From: Azolla caroliniana | Taxonomy: Eukaryota > Plantae > Polypodiophyta | DNA length: 64,000 nucleotides | Assembly (NCBI GenBank): GCA_043228905.1 | Contig: JBHGNT010000001.1 | Span: 1,736,001 to 1,800,000 of the forward strand | Direction of reading: 5' to 3' | Part shown: positions 3,001-6,342 of the stretch, piece by piece | How the letters are laid out: each line of letters starts with the position of its first letter | Position numbering within the stretch: position 1 is the first letter of the stretch | The notes under the pieces: generated by a model | Database searches by the model: none | What the model saw: the letters and a program-made list of their open reading frames with translations, nothing else | What the model was told of the DNA's origin: nothing | Program-made: the position numbers and the translations under genes

Positions 3001-4620
3001 CGTAAGAGCGATGTGGTTAACCGCCTAAAGTCTTATTATATGGATACGAATAGCCTTTTTACATGATGTGATGTTTTTCAAGAAGGTTATATTTGTGTCC
3101 ATGTTATGCAATTTCAATTTAAGGGTAGCAAGTATCATCACAAACAATAATCTTGTGTGAACAATCCATCGTGTTATTTGTTTTCCACCCAATTAGAAAG
3201 GGTGTGACAAATTTGCACATCGAAAATTTTGTGTTGCATATCACATGGTGGTGAGCATCATCTCATCTCATCAATGAAATATTGTTAAATGAGATAATAC
3301 AAAGAGGGTGACACGTTGATTGCTCATAACCATCTAGATGGTTCATGATCACAAGGCCTTCCATCAAGACAAACTCCAAGAATTAAACTTCTTCAACAAT
3401 CTATATTAGATTGTCTACATCATACGGAAATGTACAAAAAGACTTTGAATATTATTGTTGGAATCCAATGTTTCCATACAAATTTGACATTAGAAGGTTC
3501 TCCGTGTGAAGCTCTGTATTTACAATGAAAAGTGGGATACATGATGGTAATTATACCTTGCCTCATCAAGGTAATTCACTATATGGAACTTATAGAAAGA
3601 AAATGTCATCAAATTTACTACGATGATTTAAAGCATATGGAATACAAATAAATAGTACAACTTTTCAATAAAGTGAACAAAAATGAAGTCAAACCTAAGT
3701 CTACGATCTTAACTTGTTGTGTTATTCATGCATGCCCTGGTACATTATGGCGCAAAAAGAAACACAAGGTTTAGGCATATCAAATTTCACCTCCTATTGT
3801 GTTTTCTTGCAATTTTATTCAACTTACCAATTATGTAGCTTCTTGAATATATGTATTACATCACTTGACATGAATAATACATTTATAGTAGTTATGTTTA
3901 TTGGAATGTTGTTGCCATTGCCCATGGTTAGCTTGGCTATTCGTGGAAAAGTGTTTGAATTAATAAGAAATGGGAAGGGTTGCAAGCAATGCAAACAATT
4001 TTCTCACAAGCAATGCATCAAAAATAAATTGTACAAGCATAAACTATAGTACTCATGTTGTGTCCTTATATGAAAACCCTTAAAGATGAGGATAATAATG
4101 GTTCAAAAAATTAACCAATCCTTTGTAAGAAAATTGGAAGGAATGGTCATGCTATATTTAAAATAAATGCGTTGGTATGAAAAATGTTTCCAATAGTTCC
4201 AATCAGACACACCAATTATATGAGCCAATAATTCATCTCTAAACATACATATTCTGTTGTTGCATTGTTGTCGCCTCATATTCATCCTTCGTGAAAAATA
4301 AGGTATTTCACCCAACATTGTTACAATGTGACCTACAATCTCACCACAACATTATGTGTCATTCTAGTGCATTTCAAGGTGACAATATAAAAATGCACAT
4401 GATTGAGACTATCGTTAGCTTATATCATTAGGTTTGGAAATTGTGAAATGTTTTAAGTTGCGTTTAAAAGATGTCAATGAGTAGCGTAATCACTTTTGTT
4501 TGTGAACCATTTCTTCGTACATTGATGGTAGTAATGAAGGTATAAATATTTGTAAGCAGTGATTTTTAGCTTAAAGGTCAAAGTGTTTAGTTTAATATAT
4601 TTTAAACATTTTTCATAGTT

Positions 4621-4693
4621 GGTCCTATGGCCCAATGGATAAGGCGCTGGTCTACGAAACCAGAGATTCCAGGTTCGACCCCTGGTAGGATCG
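4621..4693 (+). tRNA. tRNA-Arg(ACG)
   Basis: 73 nt cloverleaf: acceptor stem GGTCCTA/TAGGATC, anticodon arm CTGGT-CT ACG AA-ACCAG, T-loop GGTTCGACCC, T-runs just downstream (Pol III terminator). Confidence 0.96.
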
Positions 4694-4843
4694 AAACGGT
4701 AACCTTTTACGCTTTTTTCATTGGGCGTAACAAAATATGCACACTTGAATCTTTTTAATTATGCAAGCAACCAACTTATGTCGTGAATTTATTCTAGCCC
4801 CTCACAAGCACACTATTTAGTTGACGAAAATATATTTTCAAGT

Positions 4844-5260
4844 ATGTTAGACTTTATCACTAATGAAGTGAAGAGATATCTCATTAGAGAAAGCACCCCA
4901 TTAGGTTTCTACCAAATGAAAAAACTCTTCTTTTTCAATAGACTAGTTAACTGCGGTTACCCTCCGTCCTTTATACTAAAAAGCTATAAGAAAATACCTT
5001 TTAATCTTAGAAAAACACTCCTATATCAACCCAAAACTATTAGTTCCCTTAACCCCACAATCTTTTAACTTAGATACACCAAACATACCCCAAAACTAGG
5101 CATTCATAGTTTTCTAAAAAATCTCTATAATGACTTAATGTTAGATCCCAAGCTTACAAGCATCTCACGCCCTTTCGTATGTTGGACAAAATCTAAGTCC
5201 TTACATGCCCTCCTAGTTAAGACTAAGTTTTCAAACAATCCACCAAAATCCCCCACTTAA
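4844..5260 (+). mobile_element. 5'-truncated Penelope-like element: C-terminal RT thumb region, with one in-frame stop at 5066-5068
   Basis: Translation FITNEVKRYLIRES...FFNRLVNCGYPPSFI...PTIF*LRY...PFVCWTKSKSLHALLVK resembles the recalled PLE pattern FIxGELxRY...RLxxRGYP...PxVxxxxxxNLxxxLV. The frame continues across the TAA to a stop at 5258-5260, and a hammerhead ribozyme follows. Confidence 0.75.
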
Positions 5261-5346
5261 AACTAAGACTAAAGTTTCAAACAATCCACCCAAATCCCCC
5301 ACTTAACACTAAGTTTTCAAATAATTCACCCACATCCCCCACTTAA
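5222..5346 (+). repeat. three tandem ~40-45 bp repeats at the end of the PLE ORF
   Basis: ACTAAGTTTTCAAACAATCCACC(A/C)AAATCCCCCACTTAA occurs three times with small variations. Confidence 0.85.
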
Positions 5347-5577
5347 TATTATCCTAAATCCCCCTTTTTCATCACATTAAGAACTCCCCCCTCACCATCA
5401 TCATTATACTAATTCCCCCTCTCTCATTCCCTATCACTTTCCTACACACATTTCTCTCTCTCTCTCTCATCACCACATTCTATTCTATCTCATCTACTAC
5501 ACAAATCAAATCCTCCCCACTCCTTTTCTCTCACTCCCTCTTCCTTCCCACCCCTTTATAAATCACATTCTCTTGTT

Positions 5578-5640
5578 GTAATGGTCTTTGCACTGAAGAG
5601 CTCCATTATTGAGTGAAACTAGTTTGCCTAAGACCACTAC
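5578..5640 (+). ncRNA. minimal type I hammerhead ribozyme (Penelope-type)
   Basis: Stem I TGGTCTT-T-GCA, core CTGAAGA, stem II GCTC-cattatt-GAGT, GAAA, palindromic ACTAGT stem III, cleavage triplet GTT, then TGC-CT-AAGACCA closing stem I. TATAAA lies at 5557-5562. Confidence 0.8.
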
Positions 5641-5662
5641 CCTCTTTGAATTAAAAACATCA

Positions 5663-5758
5663 CTCTCTCTCTCTCTCTCTCTCTCTCTCTCTCTCTCTCT
5701 CTCTCTCTCTCTCTCTCTCTCTCTCTCTCTCTCTCTCTCTCTCTCTCTCTCTCTCTCT
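5663..5758. repeat. (CT)48 microsatellite
   Basis: Perfect dinucleotide run. Confidence 0.98.
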
Positions 5759-5896
5759 CATTAGTGTATGTTGCCTACTTTCTCTTGTTTAGCTTAAGCA
5801 CCCTCTAATCGTCGTGTGCCTATCCCTACGCACTCCTTGTTTCGACCATTTGGTCCTAGTAAGATATCTAATGTATTTTAAATGTTTCTTAGAGTT

Positions 5897-5969
5897 GGTC
5901 CTATGGCCCAATGGATAAGGCGTTGGTCTACGAAACCAAAAATTCTAGGTTCGACCCCTGGTAGGATTG
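5897..5969 (+). pseudogene. decayed duplicate of tRNA-Arg(ACG)
   Basis: Same sequence as 4621-4693 with five C>T/G>A changes in the anticodon stem, variable region, T stem and acceptor end; part of a ~255 bp direct repeat (4593-4847 vs 5869-6122). Confidence 0.85.
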
Positions 5970-6342
5970 AAACATAACCTTTGACGCTTTTTTCATTGGG
6001 CGTAACAAAATATGCACACTTGAATCTTTTTAATTATGCAAGCAACCAACTTATGTCGTGAATTTATTCTAGCCCCTCACATTCACACTATTTAGTTGGC
6101 GAAAATATATTTTCAAGTATGTCAAACTTAAATTAAATTGTAGCATGTCAATATCAGGTAATTACATGTTTCAGTGATGATACCATGTTGTAAAAGCATA
6201 GTTTGAAAAATTTGTTTTGGAACCCTATCTTTTCAAGTTCATGTGATGCAACATCGAGTTAACTTCAAATCTAGGGCAACATGCATGCAATCTTATATGT
6301 ATATAATAACCTACACAAACAACAAATCAATCAATAACAATA

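Follow-up and report, generated by a model that had tools for sequence, protein, structure and literature searches.

We analysed a 64 000-nt stretch of the Azolla caroliniana genome (GenBank assembly GCA_043228905.1, contig JBHGNT010000001.1, forward strand, positions 1,736,001 to 1,800,000; the whole stretch is called the window below), in which a truncated Penelope-like element (PLE) lies between two direct copies of a unit of host DNA carrying a tRNA-Arg gene. Our joint reading, with a probability of roughly 0.62, is that an endonuclease-less (EN-less) PLE was inserted by patching existing breaks, that host DNA was duplicated around the truncated copy and that the tRNA gene was a passenger. 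Its parts are not equally firm: we are confident that the duplication was made at insertion, the tRNA-Arg is very probably a chance passenger of it, and a break-repair route of insertion has somewhat better than even odds. Giant duplications by an EN-less PLE are supported by the evidence given below; targeting or capture of tRNA genes is not. The features of the locus (window coordinates) are as follows.

4593..4854, + strand: upstream target copy, 262 nt of host DNA, whose last 4 nt (4851-4854) are common to the truncated 5′ end of the element
4620..4694, + strand: intact tRNA-Arg(ACG) (ARAGORN; Rfam 59.5 bits), 100% identical to two dispersed genomic copies
4851..5866, + strand: 5′-truncated EN-less PLE copy; of an element no shorter than 4.9 kb, the final ∼1.0 kb is present
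4851..5260, + strand: C-terminal thumb fragment of the reverse transcriptase (RT) encoded by open reading frame (ORF) 2, with no GIY-YIG domain after it
5212..5351, + strand: three tandem repeats of 40-46 nt, covering the end of ORF2 and part of the 3′ untranslated region (UTR), present in other family copies too
5557..5563, + strand: TATA-like motif TATAAAT, a candidate by sequence, ∼20 nt upstream of the hammerhead
5583..5635, + strand: type I hammerhead ribozyme of the dimer type (helix III is a palindrome); the cut is predicted to fall after 5624
5625..5866, + strand: pseudo-long terminal repeat (pLTR), from the hammerhead cut to the 3′ end of the element; elsewhere short copies and 5′ pLTRs begin here
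5869..6129, + strand: downstream target copy, 93% identical to the upstream copy
5896..5970, + strand: duplicate tRNA-Arg(ACG) (ARAGORN; Rfam 53.9 bits) with five C>T/G>A changes

An earlier reading of the locus, made from the sequence alone (the original prediction), had listed two tRNA-Arg units, a thumb fragment, three repeats, a TATA motif, a hammerhead, a CT tract and an end of ~110 bp, and all of these were located. It had also placed the start of the PLE ORF at the end of the first unit; in fact, the element is 5′-truncated at 4851, inside the thumb, and the thumb fragment carries a premature stop (5066-5068) in place of the Lys found in other copies. The direct repeat (4593-4854 and 5869-6129) extends over 262 nt with 93% identity, 14 of the 18 substitutions between the two copies being transitions. 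The description of the second unit as a decayed copy stood in part: its tRNA, with five C>T/G>A changes, is likely to be in decay, while outside the tRNA both units have changed in comparison with a related organism (organism E). The intact tRNA-Arg precedes the element by ∼155 nt, in the same orientation, and a T run lies downstream of it, at 4704-4718. Within the pLTR, a (CT)48.5 tract at 5663-5759 is followed by the conserved end of 107 nt.

A genome search with the insert gave 40 scored matches with 88-100% identity, and an exact pattern of the 3′ end was found at 34 genomic places. With the sister families included, RT hits in the genome number 150 or more. Among 49 element loci, 43 contained the 3′ end; upon removal of two duplicates and three satellite sites, 38 copies were scorable. 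We counted as a duplication a direct repeat of at least 100 nt that starts from the 3′ junction and ends no more than about 40 nt from the 5′ junction. Such long direct repeats, 0.1-2.5 kb in length, were present at both junctions of 8 out of 38 copies: 111 nt (L043), 125 nt (L046), 262 nt (the window), 484 nt (L050), 818 nt (L045), 982 nt (L055), ∼0.7-0.86 kb (L038) and ∼2.5 kb (L051). A further repeat of 3.8 kb, at L057, was graded as a probable duplication, and shorter direct repeats were seen at L076 (22 nt) and L071 (48 nt). As a null set, 180 fake elements were placed in random loci; nine of them scored as duplicated, all in three tandem-array loci, and none of 171 elsewhere did. The Fisher test for 9 of 38 against the null gave p=9e-8, a count that still included L057, afterwards downgraded to probable. 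Two sister families (20 copies) added three clear duplications, of 112, 119 and ∼3,050 nt. Divergence between repeats tracked the age of the element in seven of eight cases, L057 being the exception. The ‘very large target duplication’ suggested for the window is supported by a 262-nt repeat with counterparts in the family (8 of 38 copies, the window included, against 0 of 171). L039 was rejected as a duplication, its upstream match being a sister long terminal repeat, and L037, L044 and L048 were left out as unscorable for lying in a 178-bp satellite. These three satellite copies are young; L044 and L048 lie close to where large contigs end, and in both the 3′ end faces the tip.

The empty-site comparison covered 26 loci. 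All four testable long-duplication sites were in host repeats, other copies of which hold the duplicated segment once. At five non-duplicated sites the insertion was near-blunt or had cost about 8, 27-29, 29 and 120 nt. For the window itself, the upstream flank continues into the tRNA side in one contig of organism E, and in another the body of the unit runs into the downstream flank. At positions 4807 and 4824 the organism E unit has the letters of unit 2, at 6123 and 6125 those of unit 1, which is, so far as these positions tell, how an unduplicated outgroup should behave. An empty site already holding two units, the case that the original prediction had set against its own proposal, is disfavoured by the single unit body running into the downstream flank in organism E. 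A contig from organism C (X12), where the unit runs into other DNA, was uninformative on the empty site.

The spectrum of junctions was bimodal, with either deletions or duplications of 0.1-3 kb and almost nothing at 5-20 nt. Microhomology of 5-6 nt was present at the 3′ side of three of the six scored junctions (chance about 2e-7 under a simple model). Telomeric repeats, which in this host are of the plant type, were found at the 5′ junction of two interstitial copies among the 20 of the sister families; no clear case of telomeric repeats capping truncated 5′ ends was seen in the window element's own family, and they were absent both from the start of the 3′ flank (0/43) and, as repeat tracts, from the 3′ regions (0/43). 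We read 11 ends of chromosome-scale contigs: three had long telomere tracts, and 2.3 kb in from one of these lay a sister copy whose 3′ end faces the tip. At another locus (L203:970-3410) two PLE families stand head to head, with oppositely oriented telomeric tracts and a 217-nt copy of nearby sequence between them, a structure that looks like a healed, rejoined break.

The family copies share a common 3′ end (window ∼5866) and differ in their 5′ truncation points. Beyond the truncation point of the window copy, 28 of the 29 others run on upstream into the RT with common sequence; the remaining copy, L030, retains only the last 19 nt of this sequence. Judging from the longer copies, the element measures at least 4.9 kb: a pLTR and a tail come first, then ORF1, which an ORF2 frame of 662 codons overlaps, and finally the 3′ UTR, where the hammerhead lies. 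A complete sister copy (L205) has an ORF1 frame of 768 codons and a direct 5′ pLTR with the hammerhead cut as its starting point; L074 has an inverted pLTR plus a tail. The original prediction had noted that PLEs often make partial tandem insertions, and we did see head-to-tail PLE arrays, interstitial or unplaced, with periods of 5.58 and 4.66 kb (G000:C400, C22:8949725-8967049, C29 and C20:9473686-9483657).

The assignment to PLEs made from the sequence alone was supported by homologue search, RT tree and fold search: ORF2 is 38% identical to Selaginella LOC112343723, its RT falls into a clade (support 100/99) with GIY-less RTs of Selaginella, Ginkgo and Cryptomeria in a tree that used 34 of 121 rows, and telomerase RT was the first fold match to its predicted structure (predicted local distance difference test score, pLDDT, 83). 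On this sequence evidence, the insert is a 5′-truncated copy of a dispersed EN-less PLE. No GIY-YIG domain was present in ORF2, as the intact copies end after the thumb and the nearest homologues lack PF01541; a genome scan for PF01541 gave a single match among nine candidates. Searches of Pfam with the window fragments or with P0001, and a search of PDB sequences, gave no match. The conserved domain of ORF1, which had no nuclease match in Pfam, Atlas or PDB, was predicted to be all-helical (a weak model, with pLDDT 64 from four sequences), and the similarity of ORF1 to the Ginkgo N-terminus was not significant. At the ORF1/ORF2 boundary of L205 and L221, ORF1 and the open ORF2 frame overlap in different frames, an arrangement seen in several families that suggests a frameshift. 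ORF1 also contains a ∼25-nt near copy of the 3′ end of the element (L074:4647-4669, with equivalents in L045, L080 and L083), just before telomere-like repeats; these repeats, located at apparent 5′ ends, were rejected as telomeric, being coding repeats of ORF1.

The hammerhead, proposed earlier to lie between the two units, has an intact core in the window, with two C>T changes from the commonest form of the family. In an alignment of 12 variants the core was invariant and 99% of 108 cells were paired, in comparison with 19-43% in slid controls, and this supports the proposal. Only one pair showed two-sided change; the palindrome of helix III is kept, with its central two bases swapped in one family. 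The window hammerhead was not reported by Rfam at the gathering threshold, and minimum free energy folding produced no hammerhead fold (z -2.3). Five copies start no more than about 2 nt from the predicted cut, which is indirect evidence for hammerhead cleavage. Further variants, from other families, were seen at L148:1468-1527, L148:4065-4124, L066:2682-2740 and L080:3426-3485, two of them inside a tRNA-Glu-rich random window.

How such copies were inserted is inferred from junctions in genome sequence. Since the element has no recognisable endonuclease, its RT should need a ready 3′ end; the small deletions, the 3′ microhomology and the telomeric filler seen in other copies argue for insertion at pre-existing breaks. 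It is likely that the hammerhead would cut RNA from tandem copies, leaving a template that starts at the cut. The telomerase-like RT would then, likely, anneal the 3′ region of this RNA to a free chromosomal 3′ end via 0-6 nt of microhomology and copy it from that end, often incompletely. In the last step, also likely, end joining would link the complementary DNA (cDNA) to the other chromosome end. Trimmed ends would leave a small deletion; overlapping ends, filled in on both sides, would become a duplication of 0.1-3 kb, and the overlap could come from distant nicks, from over-extension of one end on the sister chromatid or from a broken fork. One could speculate, at even odds, that one clade of EN-less telomerase-like retroelements in land plants gave up the telomere and now spreads as a break-repair polymerase, priming on broken ends anywhere and bridging overlapping ends.

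Several observations weigh against this account. In 27 of the 38 copies no duplication of at least 20 nt was found (the upstream flank was searched over 2.2-14 kb, and four old copies have no traced 5′ end). Individual cases are imperfect: the L057 repeat leaves ∼490 nt between its end and the 5′ junction and looks younger than its element, the L038 repeat is the 3′ UTR of another PLE, the downstream copy at L051 lacks 644 nt, and sister copies L196 and L200 are ambiguous. In the window, the divergence between repeats (6.9%) is high in comparison with the 1.7% that separates the element from its nearest copy, the 3′ microhomology is 0 nt, and the empty site in organism E comes from separate contigs that break at the tRNA, with no one contig across the site, and contigs are no proof of absence. 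Finally, target-primed insertion of the type used by long interspersed nuclear elements (LINEs) has the same geometry, and LINE-like RT ORFs are present in flanks of the elements.

The last point leads to the main alternative, rather unlikely though not negligible, that the same duplication began with nicks made either by an endonuclease acting in trans (e.g. one encoded by a LINE) or by a nuclease activity of ORF1 that went unrecognised, the second nick being very distant, as proposed for Dualen LINEs. The arrangement of element between repeats matches target-primed reverse transcription, the duplications of Dualen-4b (median 900 bp, according to the available part of PMC9977147) are a precedent, the genome does have LINE-like ORFs and ORF1 has no assigned function. 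The bimodal outcome described above speaks against it, as do the lack of a poly(A) 3′ end, 3′ flanks that look unrelated, the occurrence of telomeric filler, the predicted all-helical ORF1 domain without a nuclease match and the single GIY-YIG match in the genome. We consider it improbable that the element landed by chance where the two units of an older tandem duplication met, or that a later unequal exchange unrelated to insertion made the repeat. Many tandem tRNA arrays in the genome, the over-diverged window repeat and the discordant L057 would fit such a history; it is at odds with the coincidence of both junctions in 8 of 38 copies versus 0 of 171, with host repeats that are single at four of four sites, and with the single unit of organism E, intermediate between the two copies.

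Two roles for the tRNA gene had been offered in the original prediction. The possibility that the element is directed to the neighbourhood of tRNA genes now appears very improbable. ARAGORN detected tRNAs at 6 of the 49 element loci, each ∼10 kb long, a count that becomes 5 of 47 when duplicate assemblies L032 and L079 are dropped (4 of 46 without the window), one of them about 150 nt from a 5′ junction; among random 9.9-kb windows the count was 6 of 60 (Fisher p=1.0 for 5 of 47 versus 6 of 60), a small sample that would leave room for a weak bias. The random windows were drawn from 19 large contigs, and three of the six positive ones were in a single C10 array. An enrichment had been expected from the pattern-based density (3,015 matches, many apparently tRNA-derived), and the random control removed it. 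Retroelements that target tRNA genes (Ty3 or TRE type) keep a fixed distance and orientation to these genes in most copies. Among the loci of this family, distances between tRNA and element varied from ∼150 to ∼2,800 nt in both orientations, with nothing fixed, and the tRNA was inside the duplication at the window copy only. As for the other role, capture of a tRNA gene and its RNA polymerase III promoter by the terminal repeat, we give it hardly any credence. Read-through from a tRNA ∼155 nt upstream on the same strand is conceivable; yet the full 262-nt unit was represented solely by its two window copies among 40 scored candidates, with the other matches covering the tRNA body alone, and none of 29 other element copies had it. 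Moreover, the true pLTR is the segment from the hammerhead cut to the 3′ end, the T run follows the tRNA, and the insert is a stop-containing fragment.

The genome is rich in tandem tRNA arrays, some of them very long: at L137 and L144, a stretch of 9.9 kb contains 24 tRNA genes, for the most part Asp, and 30 for Gly. We also saw Arg tRNA arrays with a period of ∼1,180 bp (G000:C1:25128374-25153547 and C120) and a Glu-rich tRNA region of ∼300 kb (G000:C10, ∼12.42-12.71 Mb). Elsewhere in the window, a tRNA-Pro(AGG) is followed by three 35-nt repeats that start within its 3′ end (9471-9644), a 211-nt tandem repeat occurs in two copies (8567-8977) and an 89-nt one in five (12100-12544). A very high-copy repeat at ∼6282-6797 is missing from organism E, where one contig joins 6281 to 6798.

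The tRNA gene itself is ordinary; the interest of the locus is in the family that it belongs to. Its young interstitial insertions number in the dozens, and several keep their ORFs intact; the junctions record insertion in the form of long duplications, small deletions, microhomology and telomeric filler, which makes the idea of priming on breaks testable. The family would link a relative of telomerase to break repair, and it points to a route toward local gene duplication in plants. If the account is true, as much as ∼3 kb of host DNA can be doubled at each insertion of this kind, enough to take in entire small genes such as the tRNA gene seen here.

Among known systems, the closest are the EN-minus PLEs of Selaginella moellendorffii (Sm1/Sm2, Coprina group). 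In the region between RT3 and RT4 they are nearly the same as the window family and neither has an insertion in the fingers domain (IFD), by eye against the row ‘Selagine1’ in Fig. S1 of PMC8557442; the link between LOC112343723 and Sm1 rests on a match of ∼80 residues to that row, also made by eye. Like the window family, the Selaginella and conifer EN(-) PLEs have no GIY-YIG domain, form head-to-tail arrays and belong to the same RT clade, and a type I hammerhead in the pLTR is common to both, as far as the available part of PMC4209133 describes it. The Sm type is described as located at or near telomeres and joined to telomeric repeats, whereas the window family is dispersed: 3′ telomeric joining and reverse-complement telomeric repeats beside the hammerhead, features of the Sm type, were seen at none of 43 loci. 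It differs further by the 0.1-3 kb duplications or small deletions at its insertions and by an element with two ORFs. Judged by sequence, the RT is one of the Selaginella-type EN-minus Coprina-group PLEs, minus the feature of telomere attachment. In the available portion of PMC8557442, EN-minus PLEs are given as generally terminal and the integration of dispersed EN-less ones is stated to be an open question.

PLE-X/Chlamys, which targets 28S ribosomal DNA in Selaginella and is genome-wide in Chara (same portion of PMC8557442), is also an EN-less, non-telomeric plant PLE with a hammerhead near the 3′ end; in contrast to it, the window family has no IFD, no CxC motif in ORF2 and no fixed target site. 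Naiad, Chlamys and PLE-X are marked by an IFD between RT3 and RT4, a CxC motif and an N-terminal endonuclease or extension. An assignment to Naiad/Chlamys was rejected for the absence of both the IFD and the CxC motif, a comparison of P0001 made by eye with Fig. S1 of that paper, the Naiad/Chlamys references being outside the tree. The EN+ PLEs (Penelope/Poseidon, Neptune and Dryad) have a C-terminal GIY-YIG endonuclease, whereas ORF2 of the window family has none.

With regard to the duplications, titles and abstract openings in the literature mentioned no long target duplications by an EN-minus PLE, and fuller accounts of interstitial plant copies may bear on novelty; the available part of PMC9977147 gives long target duplications as reported for LINEs only. 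The Dualen-4b LINE of Chlamydomonas and the rotifer R9 (126 bp in the same source) likewise make exceptionally long duplications, but these are non-LTR elements encoding endonucleases (two in Dualen), while the window PLE has none recognisable. Host repair, too, makes long tandem duplications: those of the polymerase-theta type arise at impaired forks in tsk mutants, with no retroelement at the junction mentioned in the accessible part of PMC13031928. Such fork duplications may be a source of the overlapping ends that an EN-less PLE would bridge.

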